From positions 1,233 to 65,232 of the forward strand of contig JBAXLH010000004.1 of the NCBI GenBank assembly GCA_037134875.1: a stretch of 64,000 nt of DNA. The letters run 5' to 3'. Below the pieces are notes generated by a model. It worked only from the letters and a program-made list of their open reading frames with translations. It was not told where the DNA came from and ran no database searches. Source of the DNA: a bacterium. Lineage in GTDB: Bacteria; Patescibacteriota; Minisyncoccia; Phycocordibacterales; DATDWN01. A program made the translations under genes and the position numbers. Below are positions 47,127-58,209 of this stretch, piece by piece; the stretch's first letter is position 1, and each line of letters starts with the position of its first letter.

Positions 47127-47168
47127 CTGTCAAAAGTGCTTGACAGATTTTTCATAGTATGCTATCAT
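47127..47168 (+). promoter_or_regulatory. promoter with palindromic upstream motif TGTCAAAAGTGCTTGACA driving GC-rich RNA 1
   Basis: -35 TTGACA 47140-47145, 17-nt spacer, -10 TATCAT 47163-47168. The -35 is part of the inverted repeat tgtcaa-N6-ttgaca, which is also present at 58172-58186. Confidence 0.5.
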
Positions 47169-47175
47169 TATATCA

Positions 47176-47667
47176 GATAAGGTAGCTCAAGGACGGTGCC
47201 CCCGCCCGAGAGTTTAGCCCAAAAGGGCCTACCATCTACCGGATCCGCTTGGGGCGGTTCGGTTTTGTTCCAAGTCGCAGGACTTGGGACTAGGGGACAC
47301 TGATGTGCCAAGGGGTATGTCAGTGAAATGGCCGCCGGTCCGACCGGTCCTAGGAGAGGAGGATGGCGAAGTAGGGAAAGTACGGGTTTACCCCGGAAAA
47401 TCCGCCCGAAAAGCTTAGTTCGCCCTCGTGCGAACCACCTTCTCCCCGAAAACCTGTTGAGTTCCAAGGGACTTGATGGGTAGGGTGTAATGCGCACAAA
47501 CAGTGGCCACTGTTTGTCCGCGCGATCAGGGTCGGTTCGTCGTCAAGGCGGGCCAAAGGTCCTCTGGGGTTTCTCCCTAGAGCACGGCTTCAGAAGCCGT
47601 AGGTTCCGCTCCGCGGACCGACCCTGATCAACACAGAACGGACTCTTCGGAGGACCGTTCTTTTTCT
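47176..47667 (+). ncRNA. unclassified GC-rich structured RNA (~490 nt) with own promoter and intrinsic terminator
   Basis: About 58% GC in a 35% GC background with no convincing ORF. Long-range complementarity (gatcagggtcggt ... accgaccctgatc) and many local hairpins. Terminator gaacggactcttcggaggaccgttctttttc at 47635-47667. Confidence 0.45.
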
Positions 47668-47733
47668 TTATACATTTGCCAGATATGAAAATCCACCACA
47701 CGTGCGTGTGATGGGTTATTTTTTGTACTATTT

Positions 47734-48207
47734 TTACGCGAGGAAAATATCCACGCAATTTTTTTCAATAAATGTTGCCAGATCGCTCGACGATTTGCGA
47801 AGCTCGGAAATACGAGCGGTCGACCTTTCCCTGTTTATGTCAGTTGGTTGCAAATAAATCATAAAACCAGCAGTGGCGATGATTGGAATGAGTGACCATG
47901 TATCAATCGCTCTCGGCATACCCCCGTCTTTTCCGAGGCTCATATTATAGCGGGCGACTGCAATTGCCAGCTTGTTCAAAAATTGATCTTGTGCCAAGTT
48001 GACGGGTATCACGACCCATGGATATGGCTCGAGATTTTTTACATGACCGGCACAAGAACAGGCTGTTTTGTAGCCGATTTTCCAGAGAGTTTTGACGAGG
48101 ACCCTAATACCTTCCTCGACATAGTTAAAACCAATATATTCAAGATTTAGGTCTGGTTCGAGAGGGATAATCTCGTGGCCTTCAAAATCGAATTGCGAGT
48201 TGAACAT
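47734..48207 (-). CDS. hypothetical protein
   Basis: 157 aa, Cys pair CSCAGH; no family recognised. Confidence 0.35.
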   Translation of the reverse strand: MFNSQFDFEGHEIIPLEPDLNLEYIGFNYVEEGIRVLVKTLWKIGYKTACSCAGHVKNLEPYPWVVIPVNLAQDQFLNKLAIAVARYNMSLGKDGGMPRAIDTWSLIPIIATAGFMIYLQPTDINRERSTARISELRKSSSDLATFIEKNCVDIFLA

Positions 48208-48266
48208 TCCGCGCTCAATAATACGTATTTTCTGATCAAACGCAAGAATTGTTATCGAGATGTGTT

Positions 48267-49442
48267 TTATTTACTGAGTGCATCGGTGATGAGTTTGGTC
48301 AGAGTGCCAGCAATAGTATTGTGAAATGTTTGCGAAAAGGTAGATGGATTTTGTGCGAGGAGGTCTGCAAGGTTGCCACCAGTCTCCGCTTTCAGATCAC
48401 GATTTATATATCCGAGGGTGATTGCATACAAATCTCGCGCACTCGTTGTGGTAGCGTCTGAGCTGGTTGTGATAATGCTGATGAGTTTGTTGTTTGTATT
48501 GACGACTGCTCCACCCGAAGCACCTCTCTGCGAGACGACGGTGCCAGGGACAGAGACGATATCAATCGATTTTTCTGTGAAGGTAAAAAGTTGTTTGACT
48601 GTTGTGACTGCGCTCGTCACAAAAAGATTTTGCTCTATTGTCATTCCACCGAGAAAGCCGGCAGGGTAGGAGACGAGCACGACTGGATCGTTTTCAGAAA
48701 TAGTCTCGCTTGTGTCTGGTGCTATAAATGAAAAATTTTGTGGAAGGGTAGAGCCATCGATTGCATCTGTGATGTGGATGAGAGCAAAATCATATTCACC
48801 GGTGCCTTTTGGCTCGGTTTCTTTGAGAAGTGTTTTGTTGTTTTGTACCCAGAGTGGGGAGATGAACATGAGCTCGGCATGATAACGCGGATATGCAGGG
48901 GAGCCGGTGCGCACGACACATGTTACATTGTCTTTTGTTGGATAATCTCGTAGGAGAAAATATTGTCCGACATGTGCGTTGGTCAAAATAATTCCGCGTG
49001 GATCTATGACAACACCTGTCGCGGTAATGATTGATCCAATACTTCCTTCGGCGGTACAGAGAATGTTGACAACTGACGGCCTGGCAAATGTGTTGATTGC
49101 TTCAAAATCGACAGATGTGATAGGTGTGGATTGGTTTGTTTGTGTTGCAGATGTTGGAGCGCTTTTCGAGATGAGTTTTTTTCTCGCGACTGGTGTTGTG
49201 ACTTTTGTGGATGTTGCTACTGCGGGTTTTGTCTGTTTTGCTATTTTTGTAGCAGTAGTTGTGCCGAGCGAGGGGACTGGGGTTGTGGTATTGAGACTAT
49301 GATTTTTGTATTGAGAAATATTTTCATATGAGAGCCATATGAAAAGAAAAATGAATCCAACAAAAAGTAATTTTTTGAGTGTGTGCATTGTGGTTGTGTA
49401 TAGTATATCAAAATTGCGGAGAATAAAATTTTTTGATACCAT
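48267..49442 (-). CDS. trypsin-like (S1 family) serine protease, membrane-anchored
   Basis: TM anchor, His motif ILTNAHV and Ser motif GASGGAVVN. No PDZ domain evident. Confidence 0.6.
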   Translation of the reverse strand: MVSKNFILRNFDILYTTTMHTLKKLLFVGFIFLFIWLSYENISQYKNHSLNTTTPVPSLGTTTATKIAKQTKPAVATSTKVTTPVARKKLISKSAPTSATQTNQSTPITSVDFEAINTFARPSVVNILCTAEGSIGSIITATGVVIDPRGIILTNAHVGQYFLLRDYPTKDNVTCVVRTGSPAYPRYHAELMFISPLWVQNNKTLLKETEPKGTGEYDFALIHITDAIDGSTLPQNFSFIAPDTSETISENDPVVLVSYPAGFLGGMTIEQNLFVTSAVTTVKQLFTFTEKSIDIVSVPGTVVSQRGASGGAVVNTNNKLISIITTSSDATTTSARDLYAITLGYINRDLKAETGGNLADLLAQNPSTFSQTFHNTIAGTLTKLITDALSK

Positions 49443-49457
49443 ACGACGTATAGATTT

Positions 49458-49528
49458 GCGGGATTAGTTTATCGGTAAAATAACAGTTTTCCAAACTGTG
49501 GTGGGGAGTTCGACTCTCCCATCCCGCA
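49458..49528 (+). tRNA. tRNA-Gly (anticodon TCC)
   Basis: Acceptor gcgggat/atcccgc, anticodon stem acagt/actgt with loop ttTCCaa, T-arm gggag-ttcgact-ctccc. Confidence 0.75.
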
Positions 49529-56195: not shown

Positions 56196-56201
56196 TGAAA
56201 A

Positions 56202-56771
56202 TTACAAAATTTTATCTATTATTCCATACTTCTTTGCTTCGTTTGCATCCATAAAGAAGTCGCGGTCGATATCTTTTTCAACTTTTGCTATTGATTGACC
56301 GGTATTTTTTGCCATTATTTTTGTGAGATTTTCGCGGAGTTTCAATATTTGTTTTGCGCGAATTTCAATATCTGACGCTTGACCTTCTGCGCCGCCGAGT
56401 GGCTGATGAATCATTATTTCAGAATTTGGCAATGCGTATCTCTTGCCTTTTGTGCCGGCAGACAAAAGCCATGCTCCACCAGATGCCGCCATTCCGATAC
56501 AAATAGTAGAAACATCATTTTTGATGTGGTTGATTGTGTCAATCATTGCAAGTGTCGCTGATGCGGAACCTCCGGGAGAGTTGATGTACAAGTTGATATC
56601 TTTTTTTGAGTCCTCTGACTGGAGGAAAAGCATCTGTGCGATGACAATGTTGGCGGTGTCGTCGTCGATCGGGCCTCCGAGGAAAATAATATTTTCACGC
56701 AAAAGTCGCGAGTAGATGTCGTAGGCTCGCTCGCCAAATTGTGACTTTTCGATTACTGTGGGTATTAACAT
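56202..56771 (-). CDS. clpP: ATP-dependent Clp protease proteolytic subunit
   Basis: [24 protein letters not shown]..., catalytic Ser in [10 protein letters not shown] and His in MIHQP. Start set at the conserved MLIPTV Met; the upstream ORF extension to 56897 is unlikely. Confidence 0.85.
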
Positions 56772-56847
56772 AATGTTTTTGATTAAAATATAAAGATAAA
56801 TACGGACTGAGTATACCAAATTTTCCCTATTTGACAAATATGATATA

Positions 56848-57609
56848 ATGCTGGATATGTTAGAAAAATATCTACAAGATTTGGGTTTAACAGACAAAGA
56901 GGCACATATTTATTTATCACTCCTACAGGTAGACGGTGCAACAGCGCTCGATCTCTCAAAGAAAACAAAAATAAACCGTTCAACGGTATATGTGACAATA
57001 GAATCGCTCGCAAAAAAAGGTTTGGTGAGTGAGACAACGGTTGGCAAAAAGACTCAGTTTCAGGCAGAACCGCCAGAGCGACTCGAAACATTTGTCGAAA
57101 ACCGCCGACTCCAGTTCGAGGAACAGTCTGATCGACTCAAGGATATTATTCCGGAAATAAAAAGCGTCCAGCGTGAGAGTGGCGAGAGACCGGTTGTGAA
57201 ATATTTTGAGGGAAGAGAGGGGATAATAAGCAGTTCGGAGGAGTTGCTCAGAGAAAGTATTGATGTCAAAGAAAAAATGTATATGATTTATCCCAAAGAT
57301 ACTCTGGAAGAAATGTTTTCTGTAAATGAACTTTCTGCTTTGAGAAAAATAAGACTTGATAGGAATATAAAAACAAAAGTTTTGTATACATCAGCAAAAG
57401 GGGAGAAACCGTCTGATAGCTCTGGAGAGAGAATCAAAATTGATCACGATAAATATCATATAGATTCAGACATTTCGGTTTACGGAGATAAAATACGAAT
57501 TGGAACACTGGGAAAAAGACCGTCTGGTATTTATATTATAAGCAAGGATCTCGCCAATACCATAAAAGCTCTGATAGATTTAGTTTTTGATAAAAATCAA
57601 GAGAAATAA
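56848..57609 (+). CDS. TrmB-family transcriptional regulator
   Basis: N-terminal winged HTH ([47 protein letters not shown]); 253 aa. Confidence 0.55.
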
Positions 57610-57624
57610 TTATTATAGAAATGG

Positions 57625-57667
57625 AAAACCGGCGGTCGCATAAGCGAACCGCCGGTCGTTTTTTTGC
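57625..57667 (+). terminator. rho-independent terminator after trmB-like gene
   Basis: aaaaccggcggtcgcataagcgaaccgccggtcgttttttt. Confidence 0.55.
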
Positions 57668-58171
57668 CGGATACTCCGGCGGGTAAATGTACAACTTGCT
57701 TCCCTTGCCCAATGATCTCACAGGGTTGGGAAGCCAAACTACTCTAGTCGCCCATCTGAGGGCTCCTTTCTTACAAAATCGAGATTCAGTGGCTGACTGG
57801 ATTCAGTCATGCCACCTCCTAACCGTCATGTTTTGGTTAGGAGGCGACACAACCTTCGTCTAGTCGAACATGACACCACCTCCTCTCGTCTGACTACTTT
57901 TACTAGTCTAGCAGATCAAAAACAAAATGTCAATAGATTTTGACATTTTTTGTCTATTTTAACACAAAACTCTTTATTTTTAGCCATATTTAGTGAAAAA
58001 TGATGTTTTTTGGCGAAAACATCATTTTTTTAGTGTAAAATAATAAAAAATTATGTCAAAAATTTACAAAAAATGTTATACAAAATTAACACAAAATAAA
58101 AATCAATATCAAAAAAATAGCTTAAAATAAGGCAAATTTAGAATTTGCACAAACAAAATATGAAAAAGTGT

Positions 58172-58209
58172 CAAAAATGCTTGACAAAAAATAAGAAAAG
58201 ATGTAAGCT
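58172..58209 (+). promoter_or_regulatory. promoter with palindromic upstream motif TGTCAAAAATGCTTGACA driving GC-rich region 2
   Basis: -35 TTGACA 58181-58186, 17-nt spacer aaaaataagaaaagatg, -10 TAAGCT 58204-58209. Same tgtcaa-N6-ttgaca palindrome as at 47127. Confidence 0.45.

Follow-up and report, generated by a model that had tools for sequence, protein, structure and literature searches.

The stretch of DNA analysed here (the window: 64,000 nucleotides of contig JBAXLH010000004.1, from a bacterium of the Patescibacteriota) contains three exact copies of a palindromic box, TGTCAA-N6-TTGACA, in each of which the TTGACA arm is the -35 hexamer of a promoter. Two of the copies form a pair of divergent promoters downstream of a gene for a TrmB-family regulator, and the box recurs next to this gene in more than 50 lineages. 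Judged from the sequences compared, the box is probably a shared operator-promoter, with the TrmB-like protein as a repressor that would overlap the -35 element. The three promoters lead into a small RNA with three-codon open reading frames (ORFs), a GC-rich island of variable composition (whose transcript is called RNA2), and a further GC-rich RNA elsewhere in the window (RNA1).

The box and its promoters in the window

The three copies of the box start at positions 47128, 57928 and 58169 of the 64-kb window and are all intergenic, against 0.01 copies expected from dinucleotide-preserving shuffles. The preliminary description had named two 18-mers, at 47128-47145 and 58169-58186; their positions and sequences are correct and both are real, but a third perfect copy (57928-57945) had been missed, with which the TrmB locus becomes a pair of divergent promoters. 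The boxes and the regulator gene are arranged as follows.

47128-47145, plus strand: box A, TGTCAAAAGTGCTTGACA, putative operator-promoter for the RNA1 cassette, with the right arm of the box (47140-47145) as the -35 hexamer
47163-47168, plus strand: -10 hexamer TATCAT of the RNA1 promoter, after a 17-nt spacer, with TG at 47160-47161
56848-57609, plus strand: TrmB-family regulator gene, 253 aa, candidate binder of the box
57928-57945, minus strand: box B, TGTCAATAGATTTTGACA, with the promoter -35 at 57933-57928 and the -10 hexamer TAGACT at 57910-57905
58169-58186, plus strand: box C, TGTCAAAAATGCTTGACA, putative operator-promoter of the island, with the -35 at 58181-58186 and the -10 hexamer TAAGCT at 58204-58209

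The reading of the TTGACA right arm as a -35 element is borne out by a -10 hexamer placed 17 nt further on at both of the sites first described. The same 17-nt distance is found at all three boxes, each of which thus consists of a near-TTGACA and a near-TATAAT hexamer separated by 16-18 nt, as in sigma-70-type promoters. Box A, which fits the lineage-wide consensus given below, scores 11/12 in the promoter scan and has a TG-extended -10. The arms of the inverted repeat are 12 bp long at 47128 and 10 bp at 57928, and 6 bp only at 58169; this 10-12-bp extension beyond TGTCA/TGACA shows no conservation among the relatives. A role of the left arm as a -35 for the opposite strand was considered and rejected, since a usable -10 is missing on the other strand at all three sites, and the boxes are therefore not back-to-back promoters. 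TGTCA is absent from the other good promoters of the window (33122, 44918, 56831 and 61016), so that it is not a requirement of RNA polymerase as such. Occurrence at random frequency, which would have spoken against the motif, is not what the window shows: three copies are present, and all are associated with promoters.

Conservation of the box in related lineages

The homologues of the TrmB-like protein number 658 at E < 1e-20, and their alignment was used to fetch the loci of relatives. Similarity to the TrmB protein was the sole criterion by which 80 metagenome loci were fetched, several of them from groundwater of the Hainich wells, and two reference-genome loci were added, so that the selection is independent of the DNA motif. 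The sequence covered comprises 64 kb of this genome and ~12 kb per relative (~700 kb fetched in all). Where the sequence downstream of the TrmB gene is long enough, nearly all loci have two boxes there. Box 1, the orthologue of the window copy at 57928, is a minus-strand promoter ~350-450 nt downstream of TrmB, and box 2, the orthologue of the copy at 58169, is a plus-strand promoter 130-260 nt beyond box 1.

As a guard against circularity, the box-2 promoters were re-picked solely by a TTGACA followed by a -10 hexamer at 16-18 nt, which recovered 51 of the 52 non-redundant box-2 sites of the near-palindrome search. In these promoters, picked without TGTCA, the upstream TGTCA is conserved to the same degree as the -35: counted from TTGACA, T at -12, G at -11 and A at -8 are present in 51/51, T at -10 in 45/51, and C at -9 in 43/51. 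The half-sites of the dyad are conserved past the need of RNA polymerase, as is characteristic of operators. The spacer between the half-sites shows A at -6 (44/51), A at -5 (48/51), and C at -1 (51/51), and A-runs are found on both flanks of the aligned orthologues. Box 1 is a looser version of the same layout: positions -12 to -8 are T in 36, G in 41, W in 38, C in 30, and A in 33 of 43 sequences, and position -1 is C in 33/43. The lineage-wide consensus of the box is TGWCA-n-AA-nnn-C-TTGACA. The central six nucleotides had previously been described as conserved, which applies to AA at -6/-5 and C at -1 across lineages; one spacer position differs, however, and the spacer is asymmetric rather than a simple palindrome.

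The 52 box-2 orthologues have a spacer of 16 nt (35 cases) or 17 nt (16 cases) between the two promoter hexamers, and their -10 is TATACT (32) or TATAAT (16), i.e., one of the two in 48/52. Promoters so close to the consensus make repression more plausible than activation. In the wider motif search the box is enriched at the promoters downstream of TrmB: of the strict matches in the ~700 kb, 49 are at box 2, 10 at box 1, and 5 at other places, so that ~59/64 of them belong to the TrmB locus. The five others are the RNA1 box of the window, a satellite cassette in locus L088, two TrmB promoters, and one duplicate record. The near-identical strains L001-L007 are 100% identical at both loci and provide no covariation information.

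In the viral contigs of IMG/VR the exact 18-mer has three matches, about the number expected by chance, none of them with a TrmB gene, and the 21-mer GGGAGAAATCCCAAGTTCTT has zero matches. Two low-GC viral contigs (L010, 1744-1761, and L011, 5718-5735) carry the exact 18-mer within an apparent promoter, of which it supplies the -35, and TATAAT or TATGAT follows 17 nt on; in L010 the arms of the palindrome reach 14 bp.

Additional half-sites in the spacer between the divergent promoters

The region between boxes B and C can be described in one line.

57946-58168, no strand: AT-rich spacer between the divergent promoters, 18.8% GC, with an extra half-site TGTCAAAAA at 58054

In 43 non-redundant orthologous spacers TGTCA is observed 36 times, with 5.4 expected (shuffle maximum 12), which is a ~7-fold enrichment, and TGTCAAAA is observed 13 times with 0.29 expected. 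The half-sites are often paired ~20-21 bp apart and are unattached to any -35 or -10. Enrichment of this kind is a feature of auxiliary operator sites.

The TrmB-like regulator

The TrmB-like protein matches Pfam PF01978 (E = 2.1e-15; score 56.7 bits, cut-off 25.6), and its alignment profile matches TrmB (3qph) and TrmBL2 (5box). The structure model (pLDDT 90) comprises a domain of the winged helix-turn-helix (wHTH) type, a helix of 30 residues, and an alpha/beta domain at the C-terminus. The long helix, namely residues 78-108, is modelled with pLDDT > 90 and would correspond to the coiled-coil helix that mediates dimerisation in the family. The best structural matches over the full length are TrmBL2 5box (E = 1e-12) and TrmB 3qph. 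The tyrosine conserved in the recognition helix (Y50 of P. furiosus TrmB, PMC4158304) is present in a ...TVY... motif. In respect to the C-terminal alpha/beta domain, the sequence match to known TrmB proteins ends at residue 101; TrmBL2 is without an effector-binding domain, according to a review (PMC4158304).

From its 658 homologues, found in the Paceibacterota/Patescibacteria, the TrmB-like gene can be regarded as a core gene of the Paceibacterota. Its upstream neighbours differ by lineage (tRNAs, ClpP and others), while the boxes, the small RNA, and the island stay downstream. The sole exception is L087, where boxes, small RNA, and island are missing together. Across more than 50 lineages, TrmB is the only protein gene with a consistent place beside the boxes. 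A box with at most one mismatch is also found on TrmB's own promoter in 6/55 lineages, compared to ~0.2 expected by a rough estimate. The recognition helix is near-invariant, in parallel to the invariant half-site.

In four relatives (L022, L031, L066, and L076) a tRNA gene ends 25-70 nt ahead of the TrmB start codon, and in L022 and L076 the anticodon loop of this tRNA resembles tRNA-Gly(UCC). The window has a tRNA-Gly(TCC) at 49458, with 7 kb of other genes between it and TrmB.

The small RNA with mini-ORFs

The box-B promoter faces the TrmB gene, and its transcript would end at a terminator that serves both.

57622-57898, minus strand: box-B small RNA, ~277 nt, with two mini-ORFs, ending at the terminator in common with the TrmB gene
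57871-57860, minus strand: mini-ORF 1, Shine-Dalgarno (SD) sequence followed by ATGTTCGACTAG, M-x-D-stop
57832-57825, minus strand: hairpin loop AACATGAC, complementary to the first start-codon region (57866-57873)
57755-57744, minus strand: mini-ORF 2, SD sequence followed by ATGGGCGACTAG, M-x-D-stop
57630-57666, both strands: bidirectional intrinsic terminator, a GC-rich hairpin with T-runs on both strands, common to the TrmB gene (plus) and the mini-ORF RNA (minus)

A strong SD sequence followed by ATG-NNN-GAY-stop is present in 43/46 non-redundant lineages, with 0.08/46 in shuffles and 0 in the reverse complement. The codons of the mini-ORF vary: the second codon changes, aspartate is encoded by GAC (39) or GAT (4), and the stop is TAG (19), TAA (18), or TGA (6). 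Such synonymous variation of the Asp and stop codons is a signature of translation and indicates that the M-x-D-stop mini-ORF is translated. A hairpin loop located 24-33 nt past the stop codon is perfectly complementary to the AUG region over at least 7 nt (7-9) in 28/43 lineages, compared to 0.96 in shuffles (maximum 4), through many distinct, co-varying pairs of sequences. This pairing can be described as a pseudoknot which sequesters the start codon.

The box-B small RNA belongs to no Rfam 15 family, either in the window or, at gathering scores, in 11 relatives. In many lineages (e.g., L022, L023, L032, L037, and L044), not including the window, an aptamer-like element, GGUGGUG(R)-hairpin-CUUAAA-N-GCCAC, is located 5' of the mini-ORF; no Rfam match is found for it.

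The island transcript and its cargo

The box-C promoter leads into the island, which is composed of the following elements.

58216-59098, plus strand: RNA2 leader, ~880 nt, non-coding and hairpin-rich, fold z = -10.7, 50.3% GC
58241-58326, plus strand: 5' hairpin domain of the island transcript (covariance model 26.6 bits, E = 4e-4), with a variant apical part
59001-59041, plus strand: hairpin of the RNA2 junction element (of an unassigned class) at the end of the leader, followed by GGGAGAAAT and GTTCTT (59054-59059)
59099-59470, plus strand: cargo ORF of 123 aa, 61% GC, SD sequence and ATG, with a signal peptide and a C-terminal transmembrane (TM) helix
59607-59882, plus strand: orphan cargo ORF of 91 aa, 59% GC, SD sequence and ATG
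59961-59993, plus strand: intrinsic terminator of the island, a hairpin followed by an 8-T run

The box-2 transcripts start with a conserved CAGA...TTTGAAA which, together with the terminator closing each unit, gives indirect support to a start of box-driven transcription after the -10. The covariance model of the 5' hairpin was built from 12 aligned lineages, with the window outside the training set, and it adds three lineages including the window. The family has an invariant loop, CCCAGAnAUUAUCGCG, and compensatory changes in 9/17 pairs. In the alignment 89% of the cells are paired, compared to 41-52% in slid controls, and the observed covariation score is reached by 0/500 shuffles. The RNA2 leader gives no Rfam family at gathering scores, and at E <= 10 the locus gives chance-level matches only. 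The RNA modules of the leader recur at other positions in other islands.

Both box-driven transcripts of the first account had been taken as GC-rich, structured, and apparently non-coding. This holds for RNA1 (57.6% GC compared to the window average of 39.2%, fold z = -6.7 against shuffled sequence, no supported ORF), and the RNA2 leader is strongly structured as well, but locus 2 also holds the 123-aa and 91-aa ORFs with their SD sequences. For the 123-aa ORF, tblastn gives homologues (E ~1e-15) in two other islands, those of L019 and L034, and no Pfam or PHROG family is matched. In the case of the 91-aa ORF, only the self-match was found among 5.8 billion proteins, and there are no viral relatives in IMG/VR. 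The islands average 6.6 GC points over their flanks (27/28 loci), and their cargo is mosaic, with small-protein families that recur at differing positions across the islands of the lineages.

No sign of phage origin is seen in the cargo: seven cargo proteins have no PHROG family, phage hallmark genes and Pfam relatives of the cargo were not found, and the 91-aa ORF and a 255-aa ORF of a further cassette (see below) are without IMG/VR relatives. In respect to integrons, no recombinase is adjacent in the window and none is consistently present in the relatives, and the junction motif of the islands, GTTCTT-N-AAA, does not match the attC core GTTRRRY.

Some islands also encode an orthologue of Ro60/Rsr (TROVE and Ro60-vWA domains), which follows ~1 kb of structured RNA in L018 (~3090-4860; the same in L020) and in L045 (~10500-12190). 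In the window, a MazF/PemK-like toxin gene (60526-60930) is located just downstream of the island; an antitoxin ORF was not noted alongside it.

Ribozymes and the junction motif

The motif GTTCTT-N-AAA has 50 matches on the plus strand of the islands and 3 on the minus strand, with 0.13-0.3 matches per 10 kb of flank. It is placed directly 3' of ribozymes or hairpin elements, and in the window it occurs as GTTCTT-N(1-3)-AAA at 59054-59059 and 58963-58968. The sequences upstream of the motif revealed hammerhead cores. In the relatives, a permissive Rfam search found 11 hammerheads of type III (L076 has five, L042 three, L024 two, and L031 one), with E values from 1e-7 to 7e-3 and the conserved positions intact; one of them is above the gathering score (48.9 against 48.5 bits). 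Their locations and that of a twister-P1 ribozyme are listed below.

L076 2345-5360, L042 7771-9894, L024 7991-9316, and L031 10786-10840, transcribed strand of the islands: hammerhead arrays in relatives
L076 4427-4485: twister-P1 (RF03160), E = 3e-13, 63.5 bits (gathering score 67.2), conserved positions intact

Scanned with the hammerhead core pattern, the islands give 44 matches on their transcribed strand and 0 on the other, compared to 2 in the 237 kb of flanking sequence upstream. At least one hammerhead core is present in 27/52 islands, many of which end at contig ends. At gathering scores, Rfam finds only tRNAs in the whole window and likewise only tRNAs in 11 relatives, L076 not being among them; the ribozymes of the loci covered score below gathering. 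At least two classes of elements that precede GTTCTT, namely TTGAGAA..TTCTCAA with TGATTGA and CCTCCYATCAGA..TCTGATGGGAGAAAT, are without a match in Rfam and may represent new ribozymes or processing elements.

The RNA1 cassette and the question of mobility

Box A would drive a separate unit, after which the start of a box-type transcript appears a second time.

47175-47669, plus strand: RNA1, ~495 nt, with an intrinsic terminator, its stem at 47636-47660 and a T-tract to 47669
47669-47693, plus strand: putative relic of a -10 plus transcript start, TATACAT-TTGCCAGATAT-GAAAAT, which mirrors the RNA2 start TTGCCAGACATTTGAAAT (58204-58228)

RNA1 has no Rfam family at E <= 10, no likeness to the island proteins or RNAs, and no match to the 5'-hairpin model, and past the promoter there is no sequence similarity between RNA1 and RNA2. 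An assignment of RNA1 as RNase P, suggested by eye from the string GGGAAAGUACGGG, was dropped, as no RNase P model scores at E <= 10.

In the three closest relatives of the 276-aa protein encoded beside RNA1 (76%, 64%, and 62% identity) the next gene follows 20-163 nt past the stop, and no box is found at the equivalent site in the two relatives with DNA retrieved. Since these relatives have no room for the cassette, RNA1 is taken as a lineage-specific insertion. The sequence TTGCCAGAYAT occurs in the window only at 47676 and 58211, with 0.06 expected, and RNA1 is bracketed by direct CAGATA repeats (47174 and 47681). This arrangement suggests an insertion of the RNA1 module directly behind a promoter of the box type. 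In L088, another satellite cassette (box, CAGA start, GC-rich ORF, and terminator) is located at a different place.

A common mobile origin of the two cassettes, which had been put forward as an alternative to co-regulation, is thus partly sustained by the lineage-specific insertion of RNA1 and the mosaic cargo of the island, but the locus-2 promoter has a fixed, conserved position. A wider proposal would make the TrmB locus a repressor-gated platform which captures and shuffles GC-rich cassettes bounded by ribozymes. Insertion would take place at CAGA(TA)/TTGCCAGA, with RNA1 as an example, the junctions consisting of a hairpin with GGGAGAAAT and of TTGAGAA...TTCTCAA with TGATTGA would be new ribozymes, and the mini-ORF RNA would sense the translation status and feed back. 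We regard this combination as quite unlikely.

Proposed regulation and alternative explanations

In the reading which we favour, a dimer or higher oligomer of the TrmB-like protein would recognise two TGWCA units with centres 13 bp apart (TGTCA-N8-TGACA). The right unit would sit inside the TTGACA -35 of an intrinsically strong sigma-70-type promoter (16-17-nt spacer, TATAMT -10), and because of this embedding the bound protein would occlude RNA polymerase and repress transcription; on release by some signal, the promoters would fire together. Two of them would diverge from the AT-rich spacer with its further phased TGTCA half-sites. The first would give a ~280-nt RNA with M-x-D-stop mini-ORFs, the start codon of which could be sequestered by the downstream hairpin loop, and the second a long GC-rich transcript with the conserved 5' hairpin followed by variable RNA modules and small cargo genes. 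Hammerhead and twister ribozymes would, in many relatives, cut the island transcript into gene-length pieces. RNA1 would be a species-specific satellite cassette under a third copy of the operator-promoter.

The shared operator-promoter had been proposed from two sites, with the adjacent TrmB-family protein as one candidate; the TrmB-anchored loci, the conserved TGTCA, and the extra half-sites support it and make this protein the best candidate binder. Several observations weigh against this reading. The asymmetry of the spacer (AA at -6/-5 and C at -1) is not predicted by a symmetric dimer site and could reflect polymerase or another factor, and the upstream unit of box 1, for which TGACA and TGTCA are equally frequent, has an ambiguous orientation. 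The half-site centres are 13 bp apart, compared to ~11 bp in the TGM (TATCAC-N5-GTGATA), the operator of archaeal TrmBL1. The depositors of the closest solved structure, TrmBL2, call it a chromatin protein whose mode of DNA binding is unusual. As 43/55 TrmB promoters are without the box, autoregulation is not general, and a test of co-variation between recognition helix and half-site is uninformative, both being nearly invariant. Finally, the window island itself has no recognisable ribozyme: hammerhead (RF00008) and twister give no match at E <= 10 at both loci, and the core pattern is absent from the 64 kb.

The asymmetry would be accounted for if TGWCA and the conserved spacer formed an extended core-promoter element read by the RNA polymerase holoenzyme (by alpha-CTD, like an UP-element, or by a particular sigma factor), i.e., a design for very strong stable-RNA promoters with no dedicated factor. 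The A-rich spacer, the invariant C before the -35 (boxless promoters at 44918 and 61016 likewise have C at -1), and the A-runs on both flanks fit such an element, nearly all copies of the box are in exact -35 register with a good -10, and all targets in the window start with a structured RNA. We nevertheless consider it unlikely, in view of the strong promoters without TGTCA in the same window, the ~7-fold enrichment of TGTCA in the spacer away from -35 and -10 and often at two helical turns, and the near confinement of the box to the TrmB locus (~59/64), with its absence along with the island in L087. We know of no UP-element or sigma motif with the sequence of the box. The box could also be the operator of some other DNA-binding protein, for instance a nucleoid protein or global regulator whose gene is located elsewhere, and the non-discriminating comparison of helix and half-site and the boxless state of most TrmB promoters agree with this, as does the extent of the view, 64 kb of the genome and ~12 kb per relative only. 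This explanation is judged improbable, since no protein other than TrmB is a consistent neighbour in more than 50 lineages, whose surroundings otherwise vary, the promoter of TrmB itself carries the box in six lineages, and TrmB-family proteins bind inverted repeats of similar size (PMC4158304).

Other explanations assign the inverted repeat a role outside regulation. It could mainly be a site of recombination or insertion, similar to an integron attI or a transposon end, which captures GC-rich cassettes and serves as a promoter only secondarily. The mosaic cargo, the raised GC content of the islands, the L088 satellite cassette under the same box, and the lineage-specific RNA1, flanked by the duplicated '-10 plus CAGATA / TTGCCAGATAT', would be in line with such a site. 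It is highly improbable, however, given that no recombinase is consistently nearby, the 3' ends of the cassettes have no matching repeat, the exact -35/-10 register is kept in nearly all lineages, the apparent duplication lies downstream of the -10 and not at the box, and the cargo shows no viral or PHROG signal. Weak bidirectional intrinsic terminators with an incidental likeness to promoters are scarcely credible: the scan does mark 47122-47151 as resembling a terminator (13 pairs with a T-run behind them), and A- and T-runs flank the 10-12-bp arms at 47128 and 57928, but the extended arms are not kept in the relatives, the stems are AT-rich (3/13 GC pairs), the TrmB gene has its own strong GC-rich terminator at 57630-57666, and a terminator has no need of the conserved -10 hexamer and spacing. 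The operator-promoter bound by the TrmB-like protein is thus retained as the probable explanation.

Other features of the window

Two further features are located upstream of RNA1.

44566-44790: region of a tRNA-Pro(TGG), whose 3' end, CGATTCTCGGCACCCCGACAATCAAAAAC, is repeated twice downstream (44709 and 44756), with the look of an att-type integration scar
44905-45870: third GC-rich cassette, 61% GC, with a -35 inside another palindrome, CACTTGACAAGTG (44915-44927), and no TGTCA box

The third cassette encodes a 255-aa protein with two TM segments (45041-45808) and is closed by a terminator (45842-45871); the protein has no Pfam, PHROG, or viral relatives.

Comparison with known systems

Operators that overlap a -35 and palindromes bound by TrmB proteins are of known kinds. 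Our literature search found no described promoter or TrmB regulon of relevance in the Patescibacteria, and we could not find a prior description of a bacterial TrmB-linked module of this type, of an M-x-D mini-ORF RNA with a pseudoknot, or of the coupling to an island punctuated by ribozymes. The Parcubacteria of the candidate phyla radiation have tiny genomes and few regulators, and the control of their transcription is barely known; the locus offers a testable pair of regulator and operator in more than 50 lineages. The putative regulon is unusual in that its targets are, instead of metabolic genes, a mini-ORF RNA and an island of variable make-up, composed of orphan genes and structured RNAs. 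Bacterial ribozyme clusters have been known since 2011 and their biology is unexplained, and a fixed locus with a defined putative switch would give a handle on the timing of their expression. The neighbourhoods of the islands can also be searched for new ribozyme classes. The pistol, hatchet, and twister-sister ribozymes were found by this type of neighbourhood search.

The islands of the relatives resemble the clusters of hammerhead ribozymes described by Perreault et al. in 2011, which flank variable genes in prophage-like regions and were read as processing elements of long transcripts (PMC3088659). In both, several type III hammerheads on the same strand, here along with a twister, stand between inconstant small genes, the arrangement suggests a long transcript processed to gene-length RNAs, and a gene for a wHTH regulator adjoins the cluster, which in the Agrobacterium cluster is a marR gene (PMC3088659). 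Unlike those clusters, the islands occupy one fixed, vertically conserved site under a conserved operator-promoter, have no integrase, phage structural gene, or PHROG signal, and carry the GTTCTT-N-AAA punctuation motif after their ribozymes; the window island lacks a recognisable hammerhead or twister. With the integron (Pc promoter, attI, and cassette array) the locus shares one fixed promoter into a mosaic array, small and mostly orphan cargo, and structured junctions. It differs in having no intI, no attC (R''/R' core GTTRRRY), and no sign of site-specific recombination, and its junctions would be ribozymes acting at the RNA level.

Minigenes that span two to a few codons behind a strong SD sequence are exemplified by the bar minigenes of phage lambda. 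The axe-txe minigene is another example (PMC2490762, PMC8708949). The box-B RNA has, in common with them, three-codon ORFs behind a near-perfect SD sequence, whereas its last residue is a conserved Asp, a co-varying hairpin loop further downstream pairs with its start codon, and the RNA is a stand-alone unit under a putatively regulated promoter, convergent with the regulator gene.

In the archaeal TrmB family, the proteins bind as dimers to inverted repeats of 11-17 bp and repress where the site overlaps the core promoter (PMC4158304). The known operators are TACT-N3-AGTA for TrmB, the TGM TATCAC-N5-GTGATA for TrmBL1/Tgr, and TACT-N7-8-GAGTA for Halobacterium VNG1451C (PMC4158304). The window protein has the same wHTH followed by a coiled-coil helix, the inverted repeat is of like length (18 bp compared to 11-17 bp), and its site overlaps the core promoter, as in the archaeal layout for repression; autoregulation is seen or proposed for some members. 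In contrast to the archaeal systems, the half-site is TGWCA with centres 13 bp apart, the protein is of the short TrmBL2 type without a recognisable sugar-binding subdomain, and the site of this Parcubacteria system lies over a sigma-70-type -35 and not over a BRE/TATA box. The putative targets are RNAs and orphan small genes in place of the genes of sugar metabolism.

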